A stretch of DNA of 64,000 nucleotides from Lingula anatina (GCA_051362555.1 CM120640.1:46230788-46294787); one strand, 5' to 3'; shown: positions 539-52,620, numbered from the stretch's first letter. The notes: generated from the letters alone by a model not told the origin. Numbers and translations are program-made.

Positions 539-3351
539 ATTGGTTTTCCATTTTAGCAGCATTCAATATAACCCTGTGTTGTTCAGTGCGAATAGGATGC
601 AAGATAGTATTGGATAAGTGGTGGTAAGTGATAAAAGAGATGAAACACGTGGTGTAATCTTTAAAATGATACTTTTAGAAAATACTAATGAAAATACATG
701 TTCATGTTAATGAAATGATTTATAAGATTAAATTAAAAGGCAAATTAAGCTTTTCTTGTTCACAGTGATTGTTTGGGTGTTTACATGTGTCAGGAGACTC
801 AAATTCCTTTGATATTTATTATTTGTAATATGTAATCGGTGTGATAAAAAGTAAGAATTATAACATGCAGAATATCACATTGTGAAGCTTTTTCAAATAA
901 TAAGGGTCATGGCAAGAAAAGAAAAAACCCAAAGTGGTGTTGCCAGAGAGTGGCAGCTTGGTACAAGGTTCACATCCTCCTAAATGCATTGAAAAATTTT
1001 TTTTTCTTTTTTTTTTCTCAGGATCACCATCATTGTTTGCTTGCTTGTTTCTCTGTTCTTTACATTCATCCCTTGGGCAGGGAATGCATATGGCCCAGAT
1101 GGCCTTGAATATGGAATGTGGTGGTAAGTCTACACATCATGTTATGATAAACGTAACTATACTTTACTGAATATACTGTTCTTACAATTTTGTACTTCAG
1201 AACTTTCTGGACATGAAAACTTAATCATGAATTCACAAGATATATTGTGCAGATGCTAGCCATCAAAACAAAATTTCCATTGCATTCTCTAGATTATAGT
1301 TTGTACTTTTTTTATCATTTCCTATGATTTTATTGCCATTAAAGCATTAATTTGCATTTCCAGCTGGATTCGCAATGATAAACTTTGGTGGCAGTTTGGA
1401 ACGTAAGTATTGATATTAGTTTTGTTTGAACATGTATTTGCTGTGTGCAGTAGAATATGTATTTTGTGATAAAGAATGTAGAGGAACAAGTGCATATGGC
1501 ATTCAGTCTGATGATATACTTGAGACAGGAACCAAGTGTAGCTGTTTTATGTAAAATTTTGTGCCAAAGTAAATGATCATTATCACTAGAATCATTAGCA
1601 AATACAATTCCATGGAACCATAAACAATCTTATTGATAATATTGATTTATGTTGAAATAGAAACAAATATTAATTTTATTTAATAAAAACTAATTTATGA
1701 ATATTTTTATTCTTATATTTCAGGTGGTATATTTGGTTACTCATAGGGATATTGCTGATGTTTTTTATGCCCATCATTGCATATTCCTGCAGACGAAAAT
1801 GCGTAAGTTGATATATGCACTACTAGTAAAACTGTATTGATTTTTAAAAGTTTTTGGCCCCTTTTGGAGTAGATGCCCGATTACCATCTCCTCCCTCACC
1901 CCTTTAATCCCAGCTGTCACCCTTTAGTGAGGCATGTTACAAACAAGTAAACTAAATCATGTTTTATTGTATATTTAGCCATTTTTTGTAAGAATGCATT
2001 AAAATGAAGTCAAATTAAAAAGTTATTTACATACTAGTGTGTTTTGCCTTGACACTTTAATTCCCAGCAGCTTAGTGTTACCAGTACAACTTAAACATTT
2101 GTTAATTGACGTTTATTATTTTTATTTACTATTTATTCATTACTACTTATTCACTTATTCATTCATACTACCGTTGCAACCACCACAATTAAACTTATCA
2201 GCTTTTAAAAATTTTGTGCCACATTTGTGGGTCTGTGATTATATAAACTTATTTGATTCAGTATTTTGGAAGTTTCCACATTATGCGATGTTAGTTCATT
2301 GTGATGGAATTTCACAGAATTCTTGAACATAAAAGTTAATCTTATGATTTTAGGATGACCATGCAAAAGCAGCCTTGTGCATGGTGCTTTATCCAGTACT
2401 TTATCTCATTTGTTGGATTGCACCTGCAGTAAACAGGTAACTCCTTATCTAAAACTTGATAATTTGGTATTGTTATGATGAAATAGGAATTAATGTATGA
2501 ATAACTTATCAAGATGTTTTTTGAAAAGTAGACAAAAACTATAGTTGACTTCAGTTTAACAAATCAGAATTTATGATTAATCCAACATTTGTGCGATTTC
2601 TTTAGATAATATTCCAAACCTTATTTAGTATTGAGGTGATTACCTCATTTATTTATTAAGGTGTTTGCTAAGCTTATGAATATTGGTCAGTTAAGTGTGA
2701 GTTATTAAAGATTACAGCAGGATGGCATTTGCAGTGAAAAGCATAGACTTTCGTAACTACCAGCTTTATTCTCAGTGCACAGATTTGAAGCATATTATTC
2801 ATAAATCTACATGTTCCATTAGTCTCCAGAGTTACCTTTTCTAGATATCAAGAACTTGTACACAGCTGTGAGCCAAGAATCTACTCCCATGTTTTAGGAC
2901 ACACAGTTTCAGTCAGTCTTTATGGTATGTTATTTTCATTCATGTTTAATATATTGTTGGCTGGGAGTGATGGGAGTGATGAAATCTGTACTCGAAAGAC
3001 TGGGAGATTAGAAACATTTTTAATGAATAACATTTAACCTTGGAGACGGATTATAGTCTTTCAGAAGTCTAGGCACTGTAGTTAGGGGAAAAAACCAAGG
3101 ATTGCCAATTTATTAGTCATAAAATTACATGCATATTTTTGTTGGAATGATGCTTTTAACAATAGAAAAGCACCTGATGCAAAGGTAATCGAGAGCCAAA
3201 AGTTGCAATTTCCATATACTTCATAAGATAATAACTGAATATTTTATTTATTGTAGGACTTCTGATAGCAATAGCATACATAGTTACATCAAAATGTATC
3301 TGTGATGGAGGAGATGGAGGCGGGGCCACAGAAATGCACGCTCGTTATTAG
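539..3351 (+). CDS. cAMP-receptor-like (Dicty_CAR / GCR1 / GPR157-type) 7TM receptor, 5'-partial (about TM3-TM7); exons 539-623, 1022-1123, 1364-1402, 1724-1802, 2354-2436, 2845-2924, 3257-3351
   Basis: GT-AG exons join in frame: WFSILAAFNITLCC...W|ITIIVCLLVSLFFTFIPWAGNAYGPDGLEYGMWC|WIRNDKLWWQFGT|WYIWLLIGILLMFFMPIIAY...|LYPVLYLICWIAPAVNR|Y...LYG|LLIAIAY...HARY*. The YGP..G.WCWI and YP+.Y++CW..A.+NR motifs are typical of this family. The N-terminal exons were not found and presumably lie upstream of the window. Confidence 0.75.
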
Positions 3352-5091
3352 AAGGTGAAGATTGCATTAGGAAAATATTAAGATGACAAGTCCTCTTTAT
3401 GTGCATGGGTATAAATGCAATTTCAATATGATGATGTTTATACCAATACATGGATGTGCATGACTATTTACAATAGCAGCTGAGTGACAAAATACCTGAA
3501 CAACTGAATGGAAGTTTTTTCAAGTTTAAAATACAATACTACAAGTGATGTAAATATAGATTATTATTTGTGATGTTGATGTGCTACAGGTTATTCTTTA
3601 TCAACATCTTGGGGAAGAAAATAGGATATTCAGTTTTGGGATTTCTCTAGCCCGAAACCAGATATGAAAATGATCTAAATGGCAATATAAAGCCGACTGA
3701 AAGCACTACAAAATACTTTAATGAAATTCTCTAAAATGACTTTTTTTTTTATAAAATTAGCTTTCATTTGAAAATTTTACCACATAAGAATTGGCTGTAA
3801 AAGTTATAATTTTCAATTTCGACAATCCCTGAAAGCCATCTTTGACCCATGAGAAGATGTACTTGAAACCAAATAACAGATCTTATCAATCTTGCAAGGT
3901 TTAACGAACAAACAAAACAAAAAGAACATTGACGGGCAGTTTAACTAAGCTTAATATAAAGCTTAATATTATAAAATATTAGTTTTATAGTTTAAAAATG
4001 TTAGTTTTATATCTAATGCATCACTGATTTGTGAGATATGCTTCATAAATGTTTATTTTTGCTGACATTTCTGACTTCTAACCCAGGTATTTGCAAAGAC
4101 CAAATGCATATGGCACAACTCTCATTCATCTATCTACTGTATTCATATATCTACTGTAAATTGTATGAGAACATGCAGTTTGAGCAGTACTTGATGTGAA
4201 CAGATATTTTTTTACTCATTCTTAAATTTATTTTATATAACATATTTCAAATAACATAGAAGCTGATATATTTTATAATTGCAGTGTGATTTTAATTTCT
4301 GATTTACAAGTGTCATTTGACCAATGTAGAGGTTTAATGGAAATGTATGAAAATGACTGACTCAGAGGTGATATAATTAGTTTTGTTGTATATAAGCCTG
4401 AACCAGCTGAATTTAGATTTTGGAATATAAGCAATTAGGTTATAGTTCAATATTTCTGGACAGGGTGTGACCAAGCCTTACCAGGTTCAAAAAGTCATGG
4501 CATACTTCCAACATTTACACCAGTAATGTAGAGTACCTGACCTGACTACCATACTGTGTTACTTAACAGTATCATTGTACTTTTAAAATAATTTAAATTT
4601 TTAAGAATTTTAGTGATAATAACATTTAGGAACTTTGTATACACATTTATATTTGTAAAACTATTTTAAATTAAGAACTGAGGGCCAAATAAATGTTTTT
4701 AATATACATCTTTATTATTTTATCATTTACAACTTGTACACAGGTAAATATTCCATGAATTTACTTCATAATTTGAAATGATAAAAAAAAATAAATGGAT
4801 GAGTATAATTGTTATGTAATTTTTTGTGAATGATATACTTGTTACAAATCTTGCCTAGTGTTTTCAACTAAAGACAAGTGTCCAAGCAGCTAGAATCTGA
4901 AAGTCTTGTTTTTCTTTATCCAAGTTACAGGGCATGAACAGTGATCCTATCTGCATGAAGCCCATGCATAAAACTTTGAGCTGGTCCTCCCATGATGTGT
5001 AACGATAGTTCATCTTCCCTGCTTACATTGTGACCATAAACACCAAGCAGAACTGCTGTACTCTGAGCTCTAGGATTAGAGTTCCTTAAAC

Positions 5092-31700: not shown

Positions 31701-34700
31701 CCATATTTTCAACCGAAATGCAAGATTTACCGAGAAAAACGCTCTCGAGTCACTTGCTCAGTGCAACGTGACAGTCCCAATTTCGACTGACCTACATAAT
31801 TCGCACTAAAATAGAGATTTTACAAAGAAGGAAGGTCTCACAAAAAAATTATTCTTCGTGGTGTAATTTGAGCATATATAGTTTCATAAATCATTATAAA
31901 ATCAAAAAATTAGGTTTGTCCATTTTTTCTGCAATCATTTCATTTTTGGGTAAAAAATTCCAAGGTCAGCTTGGGAAAAACGCGTGTGCTATTTTTAGAC
32001 AGCTGATACAAATTTTTCCACGGAAATGAAATGTTAATTTTACATTGTGCGTTTACATCAAGTTCTAAATTTTATTTTTTGAAAGTTTCAAGCAGAATAA
32101 TGGGCTATTCACAGAGTTTCATGGATTTTCATAACAGATATGGATTTTGCAAAATATGGCGCGAAACACACGTCGCGGACTATTTTGTGCAAGCGCGTAG
32201 GATTTTTTGTAATAATCACCGCTTACGCATTGATATGCCAGATCTCCGGACAGACTGCATAGCCCCTTTGGGTAGAGCACCAGTTGCTGACTCTGCCCCA
32301 ATGGGAATGCTGCAGACAAGTACATCATCTAGTGTAAGTTCTGAAATAGTTTTTAGTGCGACACCTCTAGGGATAGGGGCACCATGCGATGGGTTTTTCA
32401 CAACTGGAACCAGCAGTGCACCTGATTCAAGTAGTCATGGTTCCAAATACCTGTCAACTGAACAAGGAAAGGCAGTACTGGCAAAGGCACAGAATTCCCA
32501 TGCCATCCCAACACCTGTGACACCAGTTACAGGCAAAGTTAACTTGACCACTTCGTTTCCCCCAACTGCACAGCTGCCTTCATCAGTGCCTACAGTGTCT
32601 GGTGGGAACCCCTTAGTTTTGCAGCCTGAGTCAAGACTAAGCCTAAGTGACAAGCAAACTATGACTGCAGGCACAGGGCAATCGACCACTGTGACAGTGT
32701 CTGCTGTCCAACAACAAATCACTTCAGTGGCCTGTAGTACAGCTTCCACATCAGGTATGCCCATACCAGGTAATGAGAACTGAAGCTACATTCACACGCC
32801 ACTACGTATTTCGGGAATCAGTATATAACTGCTATCTGGTCACTGATTATATTAACACAAATTGAACTGATTTCTGATCCAAAGTAGTTCCTCATAAACA
32901 GAGCTTCAAGCATTATATTTTCAATTTTGGGTGTTTTTTCCTTGAAGCTTGCGCAGGTTGAGAGTAATGCTAAATTTTGATACATTTATGCCATATAGTA
33001 TTTTAAAACTTGCAATCTTATGAATTAGTTGTGGGTTGAGAACAAACGAAGACATTTACAACCACGGTAGCATGTTAGTTTGTTCTTTTTTCCAGGATAT
33101 ATTCTACCACCAATGGCTTCAAAATCATCTGCCTCTTATCTTTTATCAGCTGAGGTATGTTTTCTTTCATGACACAGTGTAAAGCAAGCTAATTTTTGAA
33201 ACATGATAAGCAGTAGGCTACAAAAGATTTTCCACTACAGTAGGATCAATGAAAAATATTGGTGAAACAGACATTTAATTCGGCATGAAATGGTTTTGCT
33301 TGCAGACATGTGAAAACCATACTCATATTTAAGATATCCTGTTCGAAATGTTGTACAGGTACATTTTAATTAATGCTATTTTTTCTCATCTGGTAATTTT
33401 CCCTTAGATTCTGAATCCTCATAAGAAGAAGGAGCTTAGTCAATACCAATTAACAAATACAACAGTAACAGGGACTACAAAAACTGCAGCAACTGTGACA
33501 TTGTCTTCCTCAGTGTCTGCTGTGAAGCCAGCAGCATTTCCAACTCTGAAGGAACTGATAAAGAGCAATGTCATTACACCAGAACCAAACTCTATGTTTA
33601 TCATCATGCCTGTAAGCTACCAACTGATTAAACTGATCACAATTTGTTCATTAAATTTTTATAGCTTTTGAAACATTTAGTAAGTCCTCAAATTATAATT
33701 ATCATTCTTTGTTTTCTTTGATTTATAGCTTCATTGTAGCATTTACACTTGCAAGAAAAGAATGTTTGAATTATATCTCACATAAATAATTAAATATTTT
33801 TTTCCAAAATAGTGGCTTCAAGAAAATATATTAATGTTTTGAAAAAATTAAACATTGCTTAGTTCATTTATAAAAAATTTTATACCTTTACAGAATAAGA
33901 TGTATGTTGCTAGCCTGCTACCCAGTGGCCAGATTCAAGGTGCAGGAGGGGAGACATTTAAGACCCCCACCCAGTGGTGCAGTGCTGTATTGCCTGTGCC
34001 AGTCAGGAAGTCTACAGCCTATCAAAGGGTAGGTGATCTCCAGGGGAGGAGGAAGAGGAGTTGGTGTAATATTGCTGTGTGTGCCAGTCAAGTAACCGAG
34101 TCTCATTGATTATAAATTGCTATCAACGTAACCCGGCTTAAATGCCTGTCACGTCTAGTAAAGCTGTTACAGGGGCGGATCCAGAGATATTTTCTGACAG
34201 TCTTCTAAATTATCTTTGTTGATCCGTCCTCCATTTTTGACCGTCTTCCGACAGAAAAAATTGGATACCCATCAATGTTAACTTTAAAATCTGACTGTCT
34301 TCCGGAAAACCCAGAAGACAGCCTAAATCCGCCCCTGTGTTAGGGGGTAATTATCTTTACCCCCTGGCTGATTCGGTAGGCGTGACAGACTTTTAAGCCT
34401 CTTGACCTGATAGCAATTTAGTGTGAACCCCCAGGGAGTTAGGTCGATCCAGATGGATTGATCTAAGTATGGGAACCCAGTCTTAGTGGTGCACTCCTGT
34501 GCCTATTAATATTATATTATCATATGTGCTTCAAAATACAATTATGCAATCATAGTTGATGAAAATGGATTTTTTTTTAAATTTTTGACACTAATTTACC
34601 CCTACACTTAAATGCAATATGAGTGATGTTCGGAGTATCATATTTTCTAAAATCACAGGTCTTCTACAAGAGCAAGCCATTGTCCAGCTACAAAATCCCC

Positions 34701-36542: not shown

Positions 36543-37590
36543 ATGTCATCTTCACTGGCATCGCGAAATGTGACGATATATCGTAGCAGTGATGGGACAT
36601 TTCAAAGTAATATGAGTTACCTGTTGCCTTGGAAAACTGATAGGAATCCAGGTAATTGAAAAGCCTTGATTGTGTTTAGTTAGTGTTGAACGTACCTGCT
36701 TAATTAATTGTGATAAGTTCGCGTGTGACACCTTCAGCCAAGGTAATGGTAATTAATTCGCTATTAAAGCTGTGTCAACTAAAAGCAACTGAAATGAAGT
36801 ACTAATAGGGAACGAAGAAAGAATAAGACTGTCAACTGTAGTTCAACTTCAGATGTTATAACTGTATCATTTGATTGATAAATTAGTATTATACGACACT
36901 GCACCAGAGCGTGGTCTTTTATTGGACACAGTATATAACAACGCAACAAAAATATCTAGATATCGGAATATTTTTATCTTGGTTGTAGTGATTGAAGTGA
37001 TCAATATTCTGTCTCATAAAGTTGGTTCACTGTACTCAATCGCCGTCTAGTGTAACTGCACGTTCTGCTACATTCTAACGTGTATATCGATTCAATTACA
37101 TGTACATGTATGTCAATTTTTTTTACCACACGTGTTATTAAGTGTCTTGTTTATTATAGATCCGGCAAACCACCTGTTGTGGGACAGCCGGCAGAGAGTG
37201 CTGCCTCCGAGATACCGCACGTTAGCTTACATGAGATCAGAAGGTAAGCTGTTACTTAGTATTTTGAGGTTTGAGAGAGAGGCCGAGCATTTCGTTTATT
37301 TTCCCGTAGATACATGGTTTGCTTGTCGATCGTTGTACACGTTAATTTGGATTGATTTTCTGTATATGTTAATGATTTTGTGATCTGCTTGCAAAGTTTT
37401 ACGGCTCTTCGTTAATCTTGTGCTAATAGTTGTTTTAAAGTCCATGTAAAAATAATGAAATTGTTTAGGAATAAATGGTAAACACACTGTTAATTCGTTC
37501 ATTTGTTCGTTCATTTCAGATCTTAGGAAAGAAATCCCCGTAAATCACGGACCAAACACTGGGCAATACGACTTTCAGTTTACCTACTAG
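36543..37590 (+). CDS. Small unknown protein (87 aa), exons 36543-36651, 37160-37243, 37520-37590
   Basis: Strong splice sites (CAG|GTAATT, TAG|, AAG|GTAAGC, TTTCAG|), both introns phase 1: MSSSLASRNVTIYRSSDGTFQSNMSYLLPWKTDRNPDPANHLLWDSRQRVLPPRYRTLAYMRSEDLRKEIPVNHGPNTGQYDFQFTY*. AATAAA at ~37673. Confidence 0.6.
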
Positions 37591-38594
37591 ATTTGACCTT
37601 CAACAGTTAATTGCTGTTAGTCCTGGAGACATGTTCAATCATAGACGGCTAGTCCTAGAGACATATTAAATAATAAATAGTTCTACTACCTGTGTGTTAT
37701 AATACTTGATGTAGCTATCTTTAACTTGAAAATAGAGTTTACTTATTTTTGCCACATTAATCACGTGGGAATGAAATTCACTGCTACTGTTGCAGATTTT
37801 TTTCATATCGAACAATTATGCTGTTGATTTAGTGGAGCTGTGTTTTCCTTTTTTTAATTCAATGTTTTAAAGGTTAAATGTTTTTCTTTCACGCTTGAGA
37901 TGATTTTTCTCAACAAGAATGAGTTATTTTTCAATTATTTGAGATACATTATGATGTTCATGTATTTCCTCTTAAGTTGCCATACGAGCTGAAATGACGA
38001 TTCTTTGATGACTGTATTTTTTTTTAATTCTTATTTGCTCACGTAAGCCATAATTGATTCTGCACTTTTTGGGTGCATTGCTCATTGGGATTTGTTACGC
38101 GCTTGATTTAATATATATTTTATTTATTATGATTATTTTTTTCAATAAAATGATGTAAGTAAGATCAGAGATTCCTTCATTTTTGTGTTGATGGTAGACT
38201 TGGATCACCTTTAATAAGTGCGATATGACTGAAAGAAGAATACCTTAAATAATTTAACACTTAATTCCTGAGATAAAGTTATCATATCAATTTATTTCAA
38301 TATGATACAAAATTAAGAGAAAAAATAGTACAGAAAGTGATCGATTTTTTCTTCATGCAATTAGAATTACAGGGGTGCATATAATCTCTATGCAACTCGG
38401 GCGACAGCAACGCGAACAAGTTTGAGACCTTTTTACTAAAACGCGAAATAAATTTTGCAGAGTCTATTTTAATTTTTACTTCTCATCTAACATCAAGCGG
38501 CCATGGTCCTGTCCGACATTGAGAAATTTTGATATATTGTCATTCTTCCCCGTGAAATTGGTCACTTTTCCGTTGTCTATCACTTCTTGTGCAT

Positions 38595-39601
38595 TTACCG
38601 GACAAATGTCGACTCTTGGGGTACTGATAATCAAATAAAACACCAAAGTCAATATGACATGCTTTTTTAGATAGATGGATATATTGGATAATAATAATAA
38701 TAATAATAACAGAATGTTTAAAGAATGATAGATTAGCAACACAAAGGAAAAATAGTTTTTACAAAACGTGCCATCTTCCAAATCTTTTGGTTTCAGCCAA
38801 TCAAAATGAAACAAATCGTTAATGATCTTTTTTAAGTTGAAATAATGTTCTGCAGTTAAACTTGATACGTTTGAATATACATAAATCGTACATGTTGATT
38901 TTATTATGATAAATAATTTGATTAAATAACATAAATCTGATATTGAGTGGGTCTTAATGTACTTACAGATCTTCCTCAATCCTGGCACTGCCTTCAGTTC
39001 TTTAACTAAACCATACTGAGTCGGCGTGTTGCTGATGTAGTAATATTGTCTTGGATCGGGGTAAAATCTGGTCATGGCTGATAAAGAATTTCTGTTGTTA
39101 AAATTAATTACTGTATAAGTATGAAATAAAATAGCCCCCTATTCATGCATATCTCTTGAAACATGTAGTATTAGGTTTAAAATGGAATTAACTCTTATGA
39201 CTTGCCATTTTTCACTGGCAGTTTTGTAACCTTTGAAAATTACTGTAACGTGTTATAACTGTTAGGAATAATCGAAACTTTTGTCAAAATGTTTATTCAA
39301 AAATGAACAACTTACGATTATGCCTTTCTCCTATCACAGTACAAGGGGTCCGCTGATCCTTGTAGTAATAATATGGGAGAGAACGAGCTCGCTCTGAAAT
39401 GACAATCAGATTGCACTTACCTCCCCTAACTTTATTTTTTTATTTGCATCTACAGCAACACGGTACACTACTTATCATGTAACTGCCCTGTGGTACTGTT
39501 TAGCCGCCAGGCCAATTTACAGGATGTTTTCATCCCCTCGACATCTTACTTCTTCTTGGTCTGGTCGTTGTCTGATATGAAGACTTTGTTTGAACCGACA
39601 T
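38595..39601 (-). CDS. Small unknown basic Tyr/Arg/Pro-rich protein (~89 aa), exons 39601-39550 (first exon uncertain), 39393-39316, 39077-38967, 38623-38595
   Basis: Phase-1 GTAAG/CAG junctions give MSVQTKSSYQTTTRPRRKRARSLPYYYYKDQRTPCTVIGERHNPMTRFYPDPRQYYYISNTPTQYGLVKELKAVPGLRKILPQESTFVR*. An alternative first exon ending at CAG|GTGAGT (~39627) is also in phase. Confidence 0.5.
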
Positions 39602-40088
39602 TACAGTAACGTGTACCTGTACTCACCTGTAGTTATCAACTTCATTGGTAAACTTTCACCATTTCGTCCCCCAGAATGCGCCAGGCTTAGAATCAAGGAA
39701 TGTACGTCCACGAGTTTGTCTATGTAAATAATTGATAAATAAATGAATGGTTGAAAATATATAATAATGAATATTATAATGAATATAATAATATTACGTG
39801 GATGAGTCTATGAATGAATCAATGAATGAATTAAAGTAGATAGATATATTAATGAAATAAATGAATTAATAGATACATGAATAGAGAAATTAATAAATAG
39901 TAAAACAGATTATTTGCATGCATATGATAAAATAGGAAAAGTTTGTTGAAGAATAACTTGAAAATTATCCCCTTACGAAGGCACGGAACCCCATTATAAT
40001 GATTCTGGTTTTAAAGCAGCAGAGTGAGAAGAGGCAGCAATGTTCTGTAGCTAGCAGCAGACGGAATGACCGTAGTCCTGATGAATTA

Positions 40089-40383
40089 AGCCTCGGTCAC
40101 AACCGGCCGCACGGGCTCTTACAGTCTTTTTGCGTCCAAAATTTCCGCAGAATCTCACGTGCCACGCAAGTCCTTCTTGCGAAATTTGGAGTTGGCATAC
40201 AGCCCGTAAAATACGATTATTAGTAGAATCTTTTGGACATGTCCAACATCCTCCGTACGTGCATCCGGGCTGTCAGCGAACTACAAATTTCGCAAGAGGG
40301 AATTGCGTTGCACGTGAGATTCCGCGCAAAATTTGGACGCAAACAAGTCGCAAGAGCCTGTACGGCCGGTTGTGACCGAGGTT
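40089..40383. mobile_element. PIF/Harbinger-type MITE
   Basis: ~30-bp TIRs AGCCTCGGTCACAACCGGCCGCACGGGCTCTT / AAGAGCCTGTACGGCCGGTTGTGACCGAGGTT, flanked by TTA. Confidence 0.85.
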
Positions 40384-41363
40384 TTAGAGACCTATGAAAT
40401 CATCCAGCGGCCGAGGCTTCTTCATTGGATTAAACCCTACCTTCGTTTCTGTAGAATCGGATTCTTTTATCCTGCCCATAGTTAGGGAATATAAATCCCT
40501 GTGGTAGGGCCATTTCCAGGGGGCGGCTGTTCCTGAACTGTTAAGCAAATGGTTTCATTTACAGCAGTGTTGTTCGCACTGTCTTCCTAGCAATGTGAAT
40601 CAAAGTCAAACATAAACAGAAGCTAATCGATTTTTCAGTGCCTACTAACAAGAGACCGAAACTAGGTGCGAAAATCGTTAATTTTGTATGATGTTTCATT
40701 GTTCCACCGAACCGAGCCAAAGAAAGGCTATGGTGAGGTGTTCATTAATTCATTTTATCCAACATGGTATAATGGAGCGTCTCGTTCTTAACAAACTGAA
40801 ACAAGATGGTCAACTATTGAGACAAAACCTACTAGTATATGTGCCGTAGTTAATTTTGCTGAAATAAAGTTTTATAAGAATTTTTATGCTAAGGTTGGTG
40901 TTTTTATTCATTCGCATCGATCACGTTTGGCTGTCACCCAATGTAGGAAATGAACCTAAAAACCACTGAAAGCGATTTAAAATACCATACTAGTGTAAAG
41001 AAAAAAAGAAAGAAAGGATCAAAATCGGTTAAATATTTTTTAACGAAACTAATTAAATCGTCATGAAGACCATAAAATAGTGGGCATCGCAATTGTAACG
41101 TAGGCTTTACCTTTACAAAATACCGTTACAATATTTTACCGCAGACAGCATGCATAATTCGTCTTATCGTGTGACTTGTCAACGAAACATGCAAAGTGTA
41201 AAAAAAAGTAGATTTTCCAAATAGTTTATCTAAGTGAATGTGAACAAATGGCCTTGGCAATAGAAACAATATCACCTTGTCACATGGAGTTTTAATTCTT
41301 GCCACCACAGTTTACACCGAGTTGTTTCATGACAGGTGTGGTCAGCAAATTGAGACAATAAAT

Positions 41364-41410: not shown

Positions 41411-41885
41411 ACAGTGGATATAATGGTGCCATAACCAGGTTTACCTTAATAGACCAGTGTTGAAATGCATACAGCTGTGTCTATCGCCGCATAGCTTGGT
41501 TTTTGGTGTAGGGTCTACATACAGAACGAGTGCATGCTAATAAGTAGTATTTAGCAATAATGTTGAATGGTTCCTTCACGTCATTTTATTAACGACTAAG
41601 GGGGCTATGGCACCAGCTGATACATGGATGGAGACATGGTGATTTGTTACTGGGATAAAGAGGAGGTGGTGAAGTGTTTTCTAATGGTGCACTGTACGCT
41701 CTTGTATATTAACGCCTGTTTAGAATGGTGTTTAAACTGTGAATTTCTCTGACAATAAGATACATACAAGCATGGGAATAAGCTGTTCAAAGCCAACTCG
41801 TGAAACTAAATAGCGAAAGGAAAAACTAACGAGGACGAAGCATCATCTATCTCCAGGATTTTTTATTACTAGTTTCAATACAAGA

Positions 41886-44800
41886 ATGAAGATATGTGAA
41901 TCAATTAGTCGCTTTTGTGCCGAATCGAAAATTGGTCAACACTGTATTCATTATGACTCGCTAAGACAGAGCATGCAAGGTGCTATCGGGAAAAATGGCG
42001 AAAGGGATTTTGTGAAACTTCTCAACAAGGAGCTAACAAGACTTAAAACTTTTATCACACTTAAGTTAAAAGAACTGCACATTTCTTATAGGCAACTGAT
42101 ATACCGCACTATGCCCAACTTGAAATCGGGTAAACTCCCCGACAACGAAACATTTTGCGGTCAAAGAGGAAAAATAATTGATAAATTTGTTGAAAATTTA
42201 AAAGACTTGGCCAAATTTACGTACCTCAATGGCGAAGCCTTCGCAAATATCATCAGGAAACACGACAAAATTGTAGGAAGCACGAGCACCTGGTACTTTG
42301 TGCAGAATCATGAGCAGTTCTTCTATAAAGTTTTAAGTGAGTTAGACGTGTTTCTCTACCACTCCAGTGTCATTTATGATTCAGTTATAAGAAAGCTGGG
42401 AGATACTTATGATGATAAGGACGAGACCGTCAAATCTGATGACCAAATTAACCAGGAATATTTTGAGAGAAAGAGCGCAAAGTACTGGGTAAAACCAGAG
42501 GATGCTTTCGCAGTGAAGGCTGAAATAGCAAAACAATTACCCATACATGTATTCAGGTAAGATATCTTGTATTTTCACGTGGATAAAGAAGCGAGTGATT
42601 AAGGTAATATTTCGGCATGTGACCTCTAATATAACGCAGCAAGGTACCGTTATGAGGAACGCTCATCATTACATTCATTTTTTAATCATTTATTTGAAAC
42701 AAAAATTGGAACACACCGTGTAAACAAACGAATATGTAATTAGATAGAGTTATTTCTCCACCTGCTTCTCACATTTGTGTCCTTCAGAATGGGCAGTTTG
42801 ATGCCGTTGATGTTTTGATGTTATATATAAAAGGGTGCATTGTATTTGACACGTTCACTACCCACCTAACGTGACGCAAGTCACGGTCTCTAAAATGCGT
42901 GCGTGATTATGACGTTGAGTTTAGTGTCATTCTGGTTCTTAATACAGAGCAATGTTTTTAAGTATTTTGTTAATGTAAACACTGACATTGGTTTGGAATC
43001 AGTGACGCTCAGTGGCACGTATCTCAGTGGGAGCTCTCATGCAAAAGTTTTTTTAAATTAAAATTAATGTCGTTCCATTCTGTACTATGTTAAAGGTATA
43101 TAGGGCGGTTTTTCAACTCAAACACACTGTTGTGGAGAAAACAAAATTTTGAGATAAAATATGGAGACGTAAAATGGCTGTAAAGGTAATGAATTGATGC
43201 TGCGATCACAAAAATAAAGAGTTCTGAAAATCACAAAAGTAAGTTCAAGTTTACATTGGATATTTAATTGGAGAAAAGTATCGTTTCCTGCAGTATTTCT
43301 CTCCAGTTATTTTCCCCTCTAGTAGGCTTTAAAAGTTATTATGAACTTTTGGCTGGAATGTTTTTGAGAAACAGAGCGACACTTTTGCGCTCAACTATCT
43401 ACCATTTGGTTGTAAGTTACACATATCCTCTATTATGAAATTTTCATAAGTGTTCTCTTTTCTTTTTTGTCTTCTTTTTTATTTTTACTTTTGCCACGGG
43501 CTTTACAGGGACGAGAAACCACTTCAACACAGCAGATTACTTGAGGAAAACGCGCCAGAGCGCACTCGACCGCCAACCACATGGGTGTCCTCGGTGTACC
43601 TGGACAATTCCGATCTCACCTGCTATCACAAACGCGTCAGGTTGGAAGAAGGTGCCACTCTGATTCGTCTGCGATGGTACAACACTCCACACAGGGTAGA
43701 GGTTAGTGTGTACACACACATACATACAGGCACTCTGAGTCACGCAAGCTAAAGGGCAGAGGAGAATCCATTTCAGTGCTGGCTGTGCCTGATATATTCA
43801 GTTCACTAAGATCATCGGTTGTGACTCATTTCCTTTTGTGTTGTAAAGAATAAAAATGCTGATCAGCTGCAGAGGCTTAATAATTTTTTGTTATTTTATC
43901 TTATCTTATTTATTTATCTTGCTATTTGGATAAATAATGTTTATGCATGAATAATAATGTGTGCCTATGCTTATTTATCCACATAAACATGATTAGGCCT
44001 AGGTATGGCAAATTCAAGAACCGGTACTTTTCAAAAAGGTAAGAAAAGATGATGTGAAATCCACCAAAGCATGTTGCGCGTTTTCAGAAGTGCAAGATGG
44101 CCTATATTGCACTGAAGTACTGAAAGGAATAGGACAAAACATTCACACATTTACACTTAATTCAGTCTATAATATTCATATCCTCCACACATACCTGTTA
44201 ACCGTTTGGTTTGTATTCTCTGTAGTCCCTACAGATTGCCGGACCTGTACATCAAAAGGTGTATGTAGAGAGGAAAACACACCATGAGAGCTGGATATGG
44301 GAAAACAGCGTGAAAGAGCGGTTTCTTCTGAACGAAGACAATGTTGTAGGATACATACAAGGTGATAGATAATGCTACAGCTATAGAGTCATCCTGACTG
44401 ATATTAAGTTGAAAATTAAAATAGAATAACGAAAGGTGCACGCAACTATGAAATAGACACAGACAAACAAAAGTAGTTATTAGCTATATAGGTCAATATT
44501 ATTATTAAAGACTTTAACCCCCTCTTTAAATTATATAAAAAAATCGTTTGTTTTATTTAGGAGATTCCAAATCGCATCCACGCGACATATCTAACACAAA
44601 AACATTGCTGGCAAAGGACATACAAGAGCAAATAAAAAGAGAAGAGTTACGTCCGATACTCAGAACGGTCTATAAAAGGATGGCGTTTCAACTCCCCGAT
44701 AACAACGACGTACGCATTACCGTGGACACAGATTTTACCATGGTAGACGAGGACGGGAATTTCGATTCGAAAATTGAATGGAAGAGGCACGAAAAGGGTT

Positions 44801-47800
44801 AGTCTTTAAAAGTTTTGTCATGAGATTTGGAGGAAATATGCATTTGATCAAAAACAAACAAACAGAAAAAAAAACGTGCGCTGCAAAACGATATTTGCTT
44901 TTTTTCTTAAATAACCCTCAAGATTTGTTATTGTTCTACTACACGTTTTAATTATTTTTGTTTTTAGAAATATTAGACAGGCACGACTATCGGATATTCC
45001 CACTTGTCATTCTTGAGGTGAAGCTGAAGGCCCCTCCGCCTCAATGGCTTGACGATCTTATGGAGTCTTCTCTAGTTCGCCCCGTACCAAAGTTCTCCAA
45101 ATTTCAATTCTCAGCGGCTTCGTTCTACCCTCACAAGGTCAACAAGTTGCCATACTGGTACAGCGATGATTCCATCAAGAGGAATAATGAAATGTATAAC
45201 AAGGTGCGGCACCTTGAAGTTACGAATCCATACTTTCTGTTCAATTTTGTATATCATACTGTGATACAAGAGGATAATGAATTCACATACATGTATGTAA
45301 TAACTGGAGCTTTCGGGAAGAGGAAATTAAAATACTACTCATTTCAATCGTCAACTTAAAAGTCTACAGGAAATATAATTTGGTGCAGATAATGCTTTGA
45401 AACAATATTTTCGGTTGATGAAGGTAAACTAAAGCAAGCCCTCCATACTAGTCACTAACATTATGTTAACGTTAAGTGTTACTACAGTGTTTTAGTGGAA
45501 ACCTCGTTTTACTAAGAAAATCACCAAGTGGTAGATAAATCATGGCGTAATCCCAGACAGTGTCCTTGAAGATTATATGATATATCGACCAAGTTACCCC
45601 ATCTTTTATTCCCAGGTGATCACGCATCCCAGAAGCGCGGAGTGGAGCTCGCATGACATGAAGCCTGCTCTGACATCAGGGGTCTTGTATTCCGTGTCAA
45701 ACGCTGTTTCGAGCAGACAAAGTAATGCAATGACGGCGGAGAGCAACAGGAGCCCAGGAATAGCTCAGATACCATTAAACGAAAACAGTAAGATTGTTTT
45801 TCTTTTATAATGCTTGTTCGATCAGTTGTATAGGGAATAAGTCATCTTTTAAAATTATTTGAAAAGTCCAAATCATTTAAATAAGGAGTCTGTTGCAAAA
45901 TATCATTTTAAAGTTAATATATATATATGCTCGTAAGGAAACGGAATATACTACTCATTTCTTTCTTTAAAGAGCTCATTAACAGGCTTGGCCTACTTCC
46001 AAAGTTTCATGGGTCGAACTCGGATGATGAGGCGCTGAAAATCAAGCCTATCCAACGTTTGAAAGTAGAGCCGAAAACATACTTCGCAAACGAAAGGACC
46101 TTTATTCAGTGGTTGACCTCATCGCTTCTGTTGGTAATACTTTTTTTCGCGGAGGACATTTTTCGAAATGCCTGAAACGAAGATGTTAGAACAATTTGAT
46201 TTTTTAAATCTGTATAGTTTCTTGGGAATTCCTTGCTAGTATTGCCTAAAATAGTCACTGCATTGGGATTTTGCTTCTTATTAAACACAGGGAAATTTCA
46301 GTTGCTGTTAAATTTGTGTCAGGGTTTCTGTCATTCTGTTTACAATGGTACATAGTATGCAGCTAGGTTTCCGCTATTCATGCTTGTATGGTGGATTATA
46401 TCTAGTGTGCCGTGCGCTAAATGGTGTTACTTGATCTGCAGGTGTACTCGAGCACCTTAACATAACACCCACAAGTATATATTTAGAATATGGCGCCATT
46501 TTTTTCCAGGTGACACTCAGTGGAGCATTGGTAACACTTGGTGACACTGATGCTCAAGTCACAGGCTTACTCTTCATGCCACTGGCGATACTGATCTTGT
46601 TGTACGCCACAGTAATGTTTTATGTAAGTTACTACACTAAGAGAATTTACGTAGATGTAGTACATTTTGTTGAACGCTGCCATTTGTATCTTTGGCATTG
46701 GTATCCAGCGTTCTTAACGATATAAATAGCTGTGACCTGAATAATTGTGAAACTGTTAGTTGCTCTTCAGTGAGAGGGAGGGGGAGAGTTAGATAATGAA
46801 ATGGGGTTTTCAATTGAAAAACTAATACTTTCCAACTCTAATACCTTATCAAATATCACATTTTCTTTTTCGTTAGTTAAGGCTACACCGGATCAAACAT
46901 AACTGTAAGTCCGGTTATCACGATGTCTTTGGTCCGGCCATCCTGACTGTGTTTTTGTGTGCAGCAATGATGGCGACCTTTTGTTTGCACTTTAAAAGTT
47001 TTTCTTCGTCTTTTAGTAAAAAAGACTTAGATGAAAAAGGTAAGTTTAATATTATTGCTCAATGTCAACAAAGACCATAAAACCAGAAGAGCTATTTTGA
47101 TTGGGTTAATATTTGTTTTAAAAGCATTGAGCAGGGGAACTCTCTAGAAACCTTCTCTTACGTATAAAGTTTACTGAATAACATCAACATGTGGTATATA
47201 AAGTAAGCCCTTAAAGAGTGCTTTTACAGTTTCATTACAGACAAAGTGCATGTAAGTTTGACTTAAATTTCGTTTTACAGAATTTCGACTGCTACTTCAA
47301 GAATCCGGCCACTGCCACAGAATGCAAACGAAGTTGCCTCTCTTTTTTGAGCCAAGCGATGTGGTTTTAGATCCATCTGGTAAATTCTTGTGGACATGTT
47401 CTGGGGGCGTTCTGGCTAAGATTGACCTGGAAAGCGAGGCTGTGATTGAATATATCCTTGTCAGTGGTGAGTGAAAATCTACATGTATAGTATCTATGCA
47501 CATTGTCCTACATGCTACCCAAAACAATCCGAATAACGTCATGTCATACGTTTTTGTTATTTCTGTTTAGATAAATTGTAGAACGTTAATTTGAATATGA
47601 AACAAACGCAAACGAGTGGAAATATACATACTAGTAGGCGGCAATACAAATTATGCAAGATGGCAACAAAAGTAAAAATAAGCGGGATTTTTACATGTGG
47701 GGTTTTATTCCATTTGTTTTGAAATTGTGTTTGATTACATTACAGATAAGAAAAAATATGACTTCGAAGGGCTTTCCTTTGGGAATCCGTTTCTGCCACA

Positions 47801-48601
47801 TATAATCTACATTGCCGCCGAGTTTCCAAGCAACCAAATCTTAATTTACGATCTTAAAACGAAGCAGATTTTAGAAGTTGTAGAAATGAATCAGCTGTTG
47901 GGTAAGAAAGTAAAAGAGAAAAACAACCAATTGTGACTTAGACTATGGTATTTTGCTTATAGTGCACCATGTAATTACAAAGTGTTTTCCTTGGTAGTAT
48001 TTTTAATGACATGTGTATGTACTATACAACTTCACCTTCACATTAAAAAAGGTATAAAATAAAGTCTTTAGTATAAGGACGATTTTGTGCTATCGGTGAA
48101 TATGATTTTGCATATTACGACTCGGCGTCTTTATCATTTATTTAAGGACGCAATCCCAGCTTTGAAGGCATAACCTACAGTGACACGGCCTGGAGTAACC
48201 ACTCGTTTTACCAGAGCTCTGGAACATTCTTTGCAACTTCAAAAGACTTTATCCAGATCTTTAGTTTGAATCCCGATAGGTCCAGCAGCCAGCTAGACCC
48301 TCTGCCATTGCAGGCAGTTAAGACAGACGCTAAAATAGGGGCTTTGACAGTGCGCAACAATACATTGTTTGCGCTGTTGGACAACATACACACCCTAAGG
48401 GCTTGGGATCTGAGGACCGGAGAGAAGCGAGACTTCCCGCTACCTTCTGCCAGTAAACAGTGGGAGGGTATAGCATTTAGCCCAGGGGGTGCTGATATTT
48501 CTACCTCACCTGACGAAACTGTCGTGTACCTTGCAATGGACTCACCGCCGCAACTTTGGCGGCTTGTGTTTTCTGATTCAATAGGATTTTTAGAATGTTA
48601 G
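41886..48601 (+). CDS. VTC4-like polyphosphate polymerase (SPX - VTC catalytic - DUF202 3TM - C-terminal beta-propeller-like domain), ~959 aa; exons 41886-42556, 43509-43701, 44226(or 44235)-44361, 44561-44797, 44968-45203, 45616-45787, 45973-46133, 46510-46623, 46877-47039, 47281-47466, 47746-47901, 48147-48601
   Basis: Twelve GT-AG exons sum to 2880 nt with no internal stop. SPX: MKI...HYDSLRQ...FTYLNGEAFANIIRKHDK. VTC: FERKSAKYWV, VSSVYLDNSDLTCYHKRVRLEEGATLIRLRWY, VYVERKTHHESW...SVKERF, LRPILRTVYKRMAFQLPDNNDVRITVDT, FPLVILEVKL, PVPKFSKF, LPYW. DUF202: KVEPKTYFANERTFIQWL, three hydrophobic helices, YHDVFGPAIL. Confidence 0.93.
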
Positions 48602-51599
48602 TGCATGTGAAGGTTAAATGACTGGGAATCGTTCTTGACTGTTTGGTATAGAATTACAAAATGTCGTGTAGAATACGAATGCAAATGGATATAAAGATTT
48701 AAGATATAAAGAATCCGACTTGTGGTAAAGCAAACATTCAAAAGTCCCTTTCATCATGTTTCCACTATGGTGCAACATGACATATACAAAGTGCATAAAA
48801 GTTATATAAAAGCGGCATTTCTTCTGCAAAATAACAGTAGGCCATAGCTGCCCCATTGAACTGGCCAAATTATAAAAATGTGACTGTCATTATAGTCTCA
48901 ACCGGAGCTTCGTATGTACCAGTAGTTACCGTCAATACATAATGCCAGTATGTCTGGTCTGTAAATCATCCTGGTACACGAAGTTGCTTGGCATTTTGAC
49001 CTTGTCGTTCACTTGACACACTCAAGATGAACTATGTGTCTGAGGTGTAGACGTGCTGCGATGCTTAGCTATAGGCCTATATGTACATCGTCGCCATCGC
49101 AATGCTGCCATTGTGATTTAGTGGTGTGTATTTGACCAAAAGAGGTCATTTGTTTAATATGCATTGCCGTAAACTGGCATTTGGATTTTCCTAAATAGAT
49201 ATGGCAAATGAAGTATAATTCGTTTATCACGTAGCTGAACATTTATTTATTTGGTCATTTGAGGGCAGATCGCTACACCGAGCCGTTAAAGGGACACGTT
49301 CCTTTAGAGACAACATATTTGATTTGTGAACTTACAATATGCAGTAGGTCATAAGATATCTGATACTTTTTTTAAAAAAGTAAACGTCCTAAGGTATCTC
49401 TATGTTAAAGTAGACATGCTGTTAAACTACCACGTCGAAAAAAATAGCTTATATTTATTCCTGCTCCGTAACTAAACGGGTTGATCTTCTAATATTTTGC
49501 AAAATGAAGTCGTTTTCACCTCAGGCTCTATTGGGTCCAGATCTAAGCTCTGGTGGGTTTTGTACCATCTCATTCTAAAAGGTATATGACTAAAATTGAG
49601 AAAGATGGTCGTTCAGTTATTATGAGCAGGTTATTAACGACCAGTTTATTTATGTTTATTCAAAGTAAATCAAGTAACACAAATTATGCATTTGTTTCAC
49701 TTCAAAGACATTCATGTGTACGTTCCAATATTTAAAACCTTCACACATACGGTGTTTCTTCTCGTTAATTTTCATCGCAGTATCGCAGTGTTATCTGTCA
49801 TCATCTCAAATAGGGTTCATTTGGATGGATACGACGATTGTTGAATGAAGTATTATCGTTAATCTGCGAATAAAGTTCGTTTTTAATGCCTTTTAGTTAC
49901 AAGGTCTCTACGCCATTTCTTTTTGTCTGTTACGTTCAAAGCTTTTAAGACATTTGAAATTACAGAAAATAATAATTTTATATAATAATGTTTTTCATCT
50001 TGGAAATATTATTGTAGCATTTGAAAGCGCCTATAATTATTCCGATTGTCCAATAATAAATATGCATTTACTCAATCCAGATCACGAGTGGATTGGACCT
50101 AACTGCGAAAACTACTTTAGATTTCGTCTCATTCTCAGAAAAATGACCCCGAAATATCTACTTCGAGAACCCAAGTCCCGTCCACTCTCCTTTTCTTGAC
50201 AACACATGTTTTTTTATTTTTCTTTTGTTCTTGCCTTTTTGGTCCCAACTTTTTCATGGATCCGTCAACGAAACCACACAAACAACTGGCATGCATGGGC
50301 TGTAATGACAGAAATTCTGTTTTAGATTTTTGTGGACCATTAAGAATCAAGGACCATATTTTTCCCTTTTCTGGAAAGTTTGAACCCTTCCAATATTGAT
50401 TTGCTCGAGGCCTGGAACGAACGTCTTTTAATTGTAGTGTCACGTGGCTGCTTGAAGTGCGATACATTCAAGTCCAGGTTTTAATAGAATGCTATCCTTT
50501 GGACTTTCTAAAATATGGCGTACAAGTTATCATTAGGTATGAAGTGCATTACTTTTGTGCTCAATGTTTATATTAAGATATGTAACTTTTCAAACTTAAA
50601 GTTTGTGTAAATCACACTTTTATATTTCATAAGTTATATATAACACTAAACATCAACTTTTTATCTTGCATGGTCTTGTGCATCCACAGACAATGTCACG
50701 TGTAAAAAAATCTAACAGTCTTACGAAAAATGTCATCCATTTCAAAGGGATTTTTCAAACGCTCGTGATGGGTGTCGTATATCAGCAATGCATCATTTGG
50801 TCGATGTCTTCCCATGAGGAATAATAGTACGTGTACTAGCGACTGCATCAAATGTCAATTCTTCTCTTTCAACCAGCTCATGATCTGAAAAAGTTGCAAA
50901 ATAGTTTTATGTTTATCTAAAACTGAGGACGTGATGGGAGTCACGATCAGCTAAAATGGGCCTACTCACTACTGGCTCACGTGTTATATATTTATAAATA
51001 CAATGTGTTATATCAATTATAACCAGTCCTGTCCCCAAGTGCCCTTTAAGAAAACTCACAAAAATGTAATGATACTAACCATTAACCACAGACGTGTAAA
51101 CCACCTTTTCTGACATTGTTTCTTCCTACAATGGCGTGTCCGATCCTAATAACAGAAATAGCCCAGACGGACTGAACGGCAGGACCTAGGGCTTGAAAAA
51201 TGGTGGAAATTTCACGTTAAAACGATGATCTGAGTCCGATTCAACGATCTCGTGTGAACGATTCTTTAAAAAATTATGAGCTTATACAGACTTGACATTA
51301 AATATGGAATATTTAAGTTTCGAAGGTATGCCTAGGTAAAAATGCGTTCTTTTTTTAAAGAAATCCGATCTCATATAAGATATGTGAATGGAAAAGTGTG
51401 TTGTCAGGTGTGTCTCTACTAATTAACTGACTACCATGTTTATTGCACTGCTGAATTGTGTAATATGCAATGATTTAATTGGGTAGTGCTCCTTTGGACT
51501 GGTCCAAGCTTAGGTGTGCCAAAGCATGCTTCTATCAAAAAAGTATCCATATGTCGGTAACTACTGCATAAAATAATTGGAAATTTTGCATGTTTTGCA

Positions 51600-52620
51600 T
51601 TGCGTAAAATGAACTGAGTGGTGTTTTAAAAATGCTTTATCTGTGGTAGAATGGTGCTAAAAAGAAAGACGTGAGACAGATTATTGCGTCAAACAGAACG
51701 GTCCGCATAGTTTTATGGAGTAATGCCCAGACTGATGTACCTACACAGAAGCCATACCCAATGTATCAAAATCATGCCACCAGGGTACAGGACTCACTGT
51801 CTTTCGGGATATGCTGCTGCAATTAAACAAAAACCACCCAGTCCGTTCAGAATGAGGGGTAAATTGCTCTCAAAACGCGTTTTTCAAGGCCCTTAGCGAA
51901 CAACAAACTTGTTTTAGCAGGTAAGAATACCAGACGACCTCCGGGGAACCTACTGTAAACGGCAAAACAGCGTCGTCTGTTTCTTTAATGAATTGGGGAC
52001 CATGACAGTTTCTGGGTAAAACACTGAAACCGCGTGGCTTTCTTTACTGAGGTCAGATTTCACCTGTACCGCTCAATTAGTCAAAACAAAGTTTACAGAC
52101 ATCCAGAAGAGGCCTATGATGAAGAGTGTGCCAAGTCTAAAGTGACTACGGTCATTGACAGCGTCAGTATCTGGACTGGATACCACATTGGTGTCAAAAC
52201 ACCAATAGTAGTCATCAATGAAAACCTGAACCAGATCAAATAAAGGAATTATCTGGGAACCACTTGACTATCATTTTATAGAGGGGCACCTTAGGAACAA
52301 TTTCAGGTAGCACGGTGAGAGTGCCGGATCACACAGAGCACTTTTAATAGCAGATAACTTACAGCACCAGCAGAATGAGCAGCTACCTTGGTCATCAACA
52401 TCGCCAAATTTGAACCACATAGACAATATGTGGGTGGGCCATTACTAGCCGAATCAACGGCCTACATGTCGTGCAACAAAACTGAACCAAATTGGACAAG
52501 TTTTGGTCAATGCCTGGAATGTTATTCCAGATTGAACTCTAAAAACCTATCCCAAGAAATGCCTAGCCGCTTCAGAGACCTGGTAGCAGCTAGAAGAAGT
52601 CAGGCGTAGCAGCGACAGTT
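51600..52620 (+). pseudogene. Decayed Tc1-family (DDE) transposase
   Basis: FFTEVRFHL...KVYRHPEEAYDEEC...SVSIWTGYHIGVKTPIVVINENLN matches the Tc1 motif FTDE.RF.L...V.R...E.Y...C...SVMVWG; PWSSTSPNLNHIDNMW corresponds to WP..SPDLNPIENLW. Frameshifts and stops are present; TIRs were not resolved. Confidence 0.8.

Follow-up and report, generated by a model that had tools for sequence, protein, structure and literature searches.

The 64,000-nucleotide stretch CM120640.1:46230788-46294787 of assembly GCA_051362555.1 (the window, from whose first letter all positions are counted) carries at 41886-48601, on the plus strand, an intact gene for a polyphosphate (polyP) polymerase of the Vtc4 type, and this gene is confirmed as part of the host, a genuine animal gene. 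Its 12 exons are separated by 11 GT-AG introns and form an open frame of 957 amino acids (aa) with a lone stop at its end. The predicted protein is composed, in order, of an SPX domain, a VTC tunnel domain, a three-helix DUF202 membrane part and a C-terminal beta-propeller. A preliminary description of the locus had recognized an intact, intron-containing SPX-VTC-DUF202 gene, which is borne out by the open frame, the Pfam matches to VTC and DUF202 and the spliced reads; the same description had overlooked the beta-propeller. The protein is probably an SPX-regulated tunnel enzyme that polymerizes ATP phosphate at a vesicle membrane, the chain passing into the lumen through a pore lined by the first transmembrane helix (TM1).

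The gene model was obtained by seeking GT and AG sites at most 6 bases from approximate exon boundaries, which gave eight open models differing from one another by 1-3 aa. In the chosen model the introns are 170-952 nt long and the GC content is 0.44 in the coding sequence versus 0.33 in the introns. RNA agrees with the chosen boundaries at two of the three ambiguous introns (introns 3 and 10). The exons are as follows, X1, X3 and X4 being DNA datasets and X18 an RNA run:

Exon 1, 41886..42556, plus strand: start codon, SPX (about aa 1-175) and the first part of the tunnel (K199, yeast K200); contigs in X1, X3 and X4.
Exon 2, 43509..43695, plus strand: tunnel, RLRWY motif (R277/R279, yeast R264/R266); Pfam VTC E 1e-9; matches yeast Vtc4.
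Exon 3, 44226..44361, plus strand: tunnel, ERKTH motif (K303, yeast K281); 4 reads spliced to exon 4 in X18.
Exon 4, 44561..44797, plus strand: tunnel, YKRMAF motif (Y369/R371, yeast Y359/R361); Pfam E 4e-16; PDB Vtc4 E 4e-11.
Exon 5, 44968..45203, plus strand: tunnel, LEVKL (E427, yeast E426) and KFSKF (S454/K455, yeast S457/K458) motifs; Pfam E 3e-12; PDB Vtc4 E 4e-11.
Exon 6, 45616..45787, plus strand: variable linker, likely disordered, alignable to Lingula XP_013413499.1, whose modelled linker has a pLDDT below 50.
Exon 7, 45973..46133, plus strand: end of the linker and TM1 (K581/R588, yeast pore K622/R629); DUF202 E 1e-5; 4 reads spliced to exon 8.
Exon 8, 46510..46623, plus strand: end of TM1 and TM2, from DUF202 and hydropathy.
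Exon 9, 46877..47039, plus strand: TM3, from hydropathy; 5 reads spliced to exon 10.
Exon 10, 47281..47466, plus strand: start of the beta-propeller (C704), predicted luminal; 9 reads spliced to exon 11.
Exon 11, 47746..47901, plus strand: beta-propeller; 9 reads spliced to exon 12.
Exon 12, 48147..48601, plus strand: last part of the propeller, of the SdiA-regulated/YjiK-like kind, with C957 as the final residue before the stop codon.

When the 12 exon pieces were run against Pfam, exons 1-5 matched VTC (best E 4e-16, three pieces above the cut-off) and exons 7-8 matched DUF202. The protein shares the SPX-TTM-3TM order of Saccharomyces cerevisiae Vtc4 (8i6v, 7ytj, 3g3q/3g3r, 5iig), and its tunnel is about 40% identical to a yeast Vtc4. 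With yeast numbering transferred by alignment to 8i6v_E, each of the 15 positions checked in the catalytic site, the tunnel and the pore is conserved, the catalytic set being R277, R279, E427, K199, K303, Y369, R371, S454 and K455. Among the yeast counterparts, K200, K281, Y359, R361, S457 and K458 are taken by us to have catalytic roles in Vtc4. The parts of the yeast structural study used here report that the R264/R266/E426 triple mutant is catalytically impaired and identify K622 and R629 as pore residues (PMC9911596); all five have equivalents in the window protein, as do Y22 and K133 of the SPX domain. The seven motifs named in the preliminary description were all found. Its assignment to a catalytic Vtc4 rather than to Vtc2/3 also holds: in a search of the PDB, yeast Vtc4 ranks above Vtc2/3 for exons 4 and 5, and exon 2 matches Vtc4 only. 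Together with the intact catalytic site, these Vtc4-first matches speak against a non-catalytic paralog of the Vtc2/Vtc3 type.

For the SPX domain, the same study assigns Y22, K26 and K133 of yeast Vtc4 to the phosphate-binding cluster (PBC) and K129, K132 and K136 to the lysine surface cluster (KSC), in the sections concerned (PMC9911596). The window protein has Y23, R27 and K125 at the PBC and N121, R124 and K128 at the KSC, so that K26 and K132 are replaced by Arg and K129 by Asn. In the full-length Lingula protein, M, E and Q stand at the positions of yeast K129, K132 and K133, while Owenia retains the lysines; control by inositol pyrophosphates may be relaxed in the Lingula protein.

In contrast to yeast Vtc4, the window protein bears an additional C-terminal beta-propeller of about 260 aa, encoded by exons 10-12. 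Exon 12 was matched to PF06977 clusters with an atlas score of 0.92, at a recognition value below the 2300 mark, which is weak alone. An AlphaFold model was made for the Lingula ortholog (pLDDT 80, 40-row alignment). Its tunnel superposes on Vtc4 3g3r (Z 30.8, rmsd 2.2, 257 residues) and its SPX domain on 5ijp (Z 16.7); three transmembrane (TM) helices follow, and the C-terminus is all-beta. The best matches to the propeller fold are tied between glutaminyl cyclase (Z 21.5, rmsd 2.6, 205 residues aligned) and YjiK (Z 21.2, rmsd 3.1, 213 aligned), so that the domain has the fold of the YjiK/SdiA-regulated and plant/bacterial glutaminyl cyclase propellers (3qqz, 3mbr, 2iwa), although identity to these is only 13-16%. 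Propellers of this kind are five-bladed and bind Ca2+, and conserved acidic blade positions were seen in the propeller alignment. Of 18 aligned C-termini, most share a first and a last cysteine, and two N-glycosylation sequons occur in the window propeller. Three TM helices would place the propeller in the lumen, and the conserved Cys pair and the sequons also point to a luminal location.

The Lingula TM part (575-700), when modelled in four copies, formed a ring around TM1 with a score of 0.46, versus 0.00 for the best control; R598 (yeast R629) is central, at least 84% of contacts agree across runs, and pLDDT is at least 61. The mark that this score passes is also passed by 21 of 30 solved homo-pairs (17 of 29 for eukaryotes) and by 0 of 23 single chains, and the pass may reflect the solved structure of a similar complex. 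The tetramer model is thus better taken as likeness to the solved VTC pore than as proof of self-assembly. In yeast, Vtc1 and Vtc2/3 are required along with Vtc4, at 3:1:1, according to the corresponding part of PMC9911596, and the pore of the VTC complex has five units.

By analogy with yeast Vtc4, the tunnel domain would transfer the gamma-phosphate of ATP onto the growing chain, and the SPX domain, whose basic patch is mostly kept, would tune synthesis through binding of inositol pyrophosphates. The chain would leave through a pore formed by TM1 helices, for which a ring of the protein's own copies is a possible channel, and the luminal propeller may bind Ca2+ or organize a Ca-polyP granule.

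Transcription was followed in four of nine RNA runs (X12, X15, X17 and X18), which were compared with the window. Spliced transcripts, whose presence the preliminary description had proposed to check, were found in X18 at five of the 11 predicted junctions, those of introns 3, 7, 9, 10 and 11 (4, 4, 5, 9 and 9 reads), in each case at the exact base of the model. Reads over the gene are scattered in X12 and X15 and absent from X17. The pattern suggests a use of the gene restricted to certain tissues or stages. A small plus-strand gene of three exons at 36543-37590, with an ORF of 88 aa and a 3' UTR reaching about 38.1 kb, is spliced in all four runs; two of its exons gave no Pfam match.

Several of these observations weigh against a working polyP polymerase. 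Expression is low and patchy, with a depth of at most about 4 and spliced reads in one of the four RNA runs, and six of the 11 junctions, including intron 1, are without reads among the joints listed. The SPX domain is degenerate, and more so in Lingula: in the window protein one of the three KSC lysines is lost, and the Pfam SPX match on exon 1 (E 1e-5) scores 26.2 bits, below the cut-off of 27.8. The gene could accordingly be real and yet encode no vesicular polyP polymerase, being a slowly decaying relic or a repurposed tunnel enzyme, for example a nucleotide triphosphatase. Truncated Lingula paralogs in which catalytic residues are lost fit such a decay, and so do five missense changes among the 10 polymorphic codons listed. 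However, the 11 exonic differences listed in these codons (five codons silent, five missense) include no stop, and all five indels listed within the gene are intronic, counts that are small and come from the listed variants only. Moreover, all of the checked catalytic, tunnel and pore positions are kept, and every domain is conserved with Lingula (45-83%). We therefore regard a relic or repurposed enzyme as improbable, and a vesicular polyP polymerase remains the preferred reading.

The host origin of the locus is supported by DNA data. Ten DNA datasets from four studies match the locus and all carry one organism label; four of them, one per study, were compared with the window. Contigs in X1, X3 and X4 cover exon 1, exons 3-5 wholly or partly, and exons 8/9-12. 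The gene is thereby covered by contigs of three studies (P1, P2 and P3), of which P2 and P3 stand even if P1 is discounted as a possible source. In X1, the contigs near the start of the gene lie at 37384-39804, 40294-41356 and 41416-42583, with breaks that coincide with repeats. In X4 the depth is low at 42.9-44.1 kb, a region covered in X1 and X3, and X8, with its small share, covers mostly repeats, with depth in 18 of 30 bins; contig depth is not equivalent to copy number. Two alleles, each at about half depth, are present in X1 within the gene and in the adjoining DNA alike.

Foreign DNA of a symbiont or food organism, present as a contaminant or through a chimeric join, could be suspected from the composition of the window. 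The observed-to-expected ratio of CpG (CpG o/e) is about 0.8 in the block of the gene versus 0.34 for 8-35 kb, with a slight rise in GC; the step lies at about 36000, where the ratio jumps from 0.17-0.52 to 0.72-0.91 and divides the block holding CD2BP2 and SANBR from the remainder. In addition, the whole stretch is spanned by no listed contig, and none of those listed joins a neighbouring gene to exon 1, which counts against placement in the host. However, such CpG steps are expected under the mosaic gene-body methylation of invertebrates, in which a high CpG o/e goes with unmethylated genes of restricted expression. The single label on all 10 DNA datasets, the coverage by three studies, the allele pairs resembling those of the adjoining DNA and the spliced RNA bearing the same species label all speak against foreign DNA, as do the nearest relatives, which are animal proteins on scaffolds of 0.9-62 Mb. 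A contaminant or chimera is extremely unlikely, and we treat the gene as one of the host.

The closest relatives are indeed found in animals. A search with exon 4 retrieved 273 proteins at E <=0.001, and the best match, XP_013413499.1 of the phosphate-shelled brachiopod Lingula anatina, named 'vacuolar transporter chaperone 4-like' in RefSeq, is 54% identical to the window protein over its full length (SPX 45%, VTC 66%, TM 83%, propeller 58%). Two full-length orthologs are present in the marine worm Owenia fusiformis (CAH1787178.1 and P0162, 32-33% identical). The Lingula and Owenia proteins share with the window protein all four domains and the Cys at the end; they are known as database annotations, and no functional or evolutionary description of them was found in literature searches. 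A 21-aa insert in a Lingula isoform falls precisely at window intron 7, which hints at an intron site shared with Lingula. Two further Lingula paralogs, XP_013422057.1 (P0003) and XP_013378586.1 (P0154), are 487 aa long and without the TM part, P0003 also being without the equivalents of E426, Y359 and R253; these may be either decaying copies or dead subunits comparable to Vtc2/3 that evolved independently.

A search with XP_013413499.1 as query (7992 candidates scored, proteins of 535-1703 aa, many rows nameless) gave 392 matches, and the named animals among the 120 listed are Lingula and the two Owenia proteins, with no vertebrates or insects; the listed matches do not include the window protein itself. 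The preliminary description had allowed that orthologs might already be widespread in invertebrates; this is not borne out, those 120 matches including two named animal species. Among 30 proteins whose names were retrieved are those of Choanoeca flexa and Diaphanoeca grandis (choanoflagellates) and of Amoebidium (an ichthyosporean), and an identifier with CFRG, presumably Creolimax. The whole architecture of the window protein, propeller included, is found in algal and protist VTC4s (Pyramimonas, Mesostigma, a Tryblionella-containing cluster and marine transcripts). The window tunnel is about 40% identical both to that of Choanoeca and to that of a propeller-bearing homolog, and the choanoflagellate VTC4s are the nearest in the core tree.

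Trees of the VTC and TM core, all unrooted, were built from 198 rows (FastTree) and from 36 rows (IQ-TREE mixture model); the truncated Lingula paralogs and the long-branch row P0025 were dropped from the later ones. The animal proteins form one clade, with a support of 99 in the former and 100/98 in the latter. A choanoflagellate group together with one nameless row is sister to the animals in all five core trees (95, 90, 88, 85/88 and 94, the tree with 90 including one nameless long-branch row). The preliminary description had proposed either horizontal transfer from an alga or protist or retention with losses in most animals. A recent transfer into the window genome is unlikely because the Lingula and Owenia orthologs share one clade with the window gene, and, if passed down within animals, the gene most likely arose before Lingula and Owenia diverged. 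Retention and ancient transfer both survive approximately unbiased (AU) tests.

We give roughly even chances to inheritance from the common ancestor of animals and choanoflagellates followed by many losses. Some evidence weighs against this origin. The support joining animals and choanoflagellates is moderate in the careful tree (85/88), and the pair lies among algal and protist homologs, away from the fungal and ichthyosporean Vtc4s. A clade of animals plus algae is not rejected (p-AU 0.075). The propeller is common to algal-type homologs (E 4e-33), and its profile was recognized in neither of the two named choanoflagellate proteins. Alternatively, an early lophotrochozoan may have acquired the same enzyme by an ancient horizontal transfer, the donor being an alga or another protist (possibly choanoflagellate-like prey), with later loss in most descendants; we put the chances of this somewhat below even. 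The grouping of the animals with dinoflagellate, haptophyte, diatom-like and green-algal homologs would then be expected, vertical descent demands many more losses, and the two named animal species among the listed matches are both lophotrochozoans. However, choanoflagellates are the sister group in every core tree, and a single clade of the named opisthokonts is not rejected with Rhodelphis unconstrained (p-AU 0.175); its rejection with Rhodelphis forced out (p 0.0009) was set aside as confounded by that constraint. Moreover, no closer algal relative appeared after 38 ORFs from 81 loci were added to the tree. In the propeller-only tree the animals group together (94/91), with no resolved sister group. 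Choanozoan inheritance is, on the present sequences, slightly favoured over ancient transfer.

Wider searches added distant homologs. Word-index searches with single exons gave no relatives (724 candidates for exon 1 and 12 for exon 5), and none of 104 metagenome stretches was recovered with the Lingula protein as the sole query. A scan by alignment kept 80 of 289, with best-segment identities of at most 43%; none falls within the animal-choanoflagellate group, 37 of the 80 having given a tree-usable unspliced ORF. A 66-kb IMG/VR contig (L001) encodes at 2830-4512 an intronless protein of 560 aa, 28% identical to residues 94-686 of the Lingula VTC4, among ORFs that are giant-virus-like. A viral donor was rejected: VTC4 was present in one of 59 viral stretches and places elsewhere, on a long branch.

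Among the neighbours, the animal genes CD2BP2 and SANBR named in the preliminary description were both confirmed, CD2BP2 by a GYF exon (E 2e-15 in Pfam and 7e-22 to human CD2BP2) and SANBR by a BTB exon (E 6e-23). The ANKRD31-like neighbour was not recovered, there being no relevant Pfam match and, for one exon (the 25.8-kb exon), no atlas match; an Rfam search gave zero matches. On the minus strand, at about 38900-39700, lies a small spliced gene with CT..AC joints at 39077-39316 and 39393-39627; it is oriented opposite to the VTC4 gene, facing away from it, and has no convincing Pfam match. The window also contains high-copy repeats: a 297-bp MITE-like element with 119-nt inverted arms at 40088-40384, a transcribed repeat at 34170-34480 (34.2-34.5 kb) and a very abundant one at 51280-52000, starting at 51.3 kb.

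The VTC family and the VTC4-like name in RefSeq are already known; what is new is a propeller-bearing Vtc4 variant in a third animal genome, that of the window. In the passages that concern these genes, a 2023 review confines Vtc4 among opisthokonts to fungi (PMC10657179) and a 2025 review describes animals as being without them (PMC12526157). The VTC4 sequences of choanoflagellates and ichthyosporeans (P0165, P0188, P0125 and P0209) contradict the fungi-only statement, and the present locus together with its Lingula, Owenia, choanoflagellate and ichthyosporean homologs contradicts these statements of absence. No report of an animal VTC4 was found in literature searches whose scope lay outside subscription journals and bioRxiv supplements, and the Lingula genome paper mentions neither VTC nor polyphosphate in the main text or in one supplement (PMC4595640).

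The source of polyP in animals is a long-open question, for which the window gene provides a candidate animal polyP synthase, while leaving the polyP of mammals unexplained. The preliminary description had suggested a possible role in phosphate/cation granule storage or in phosphate biomineralization. To our knowledge, Owenia has no apatite shell, so that biomineralization cannot be the sole use. Ca/P granules of brachiopods have been proposed to be Ca-polyP in phosphate-shelled species, in the relevant part of PMC3824353, and sea urchin eggs contain polyP granules (PMC2907711). Both are plausible settings, with no link to this gene. The locus makes the Ca-polyP proposal for brachiopod granules testable. 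A more speculative and rather unlikely scenario is that a VTC polymerase was inherited from the common ancestor with choanoflagellates, and that a few marine invertebrates load secretory granules with calcium polyphosphate by means of a polymerase-channel that assembles from its own copies and carries a Ca2+-binding propeller in the lumen. If true, this could be the missing source, in Lingula, of those Ca/P granules that have been proposed as seeds of the apatite shell.

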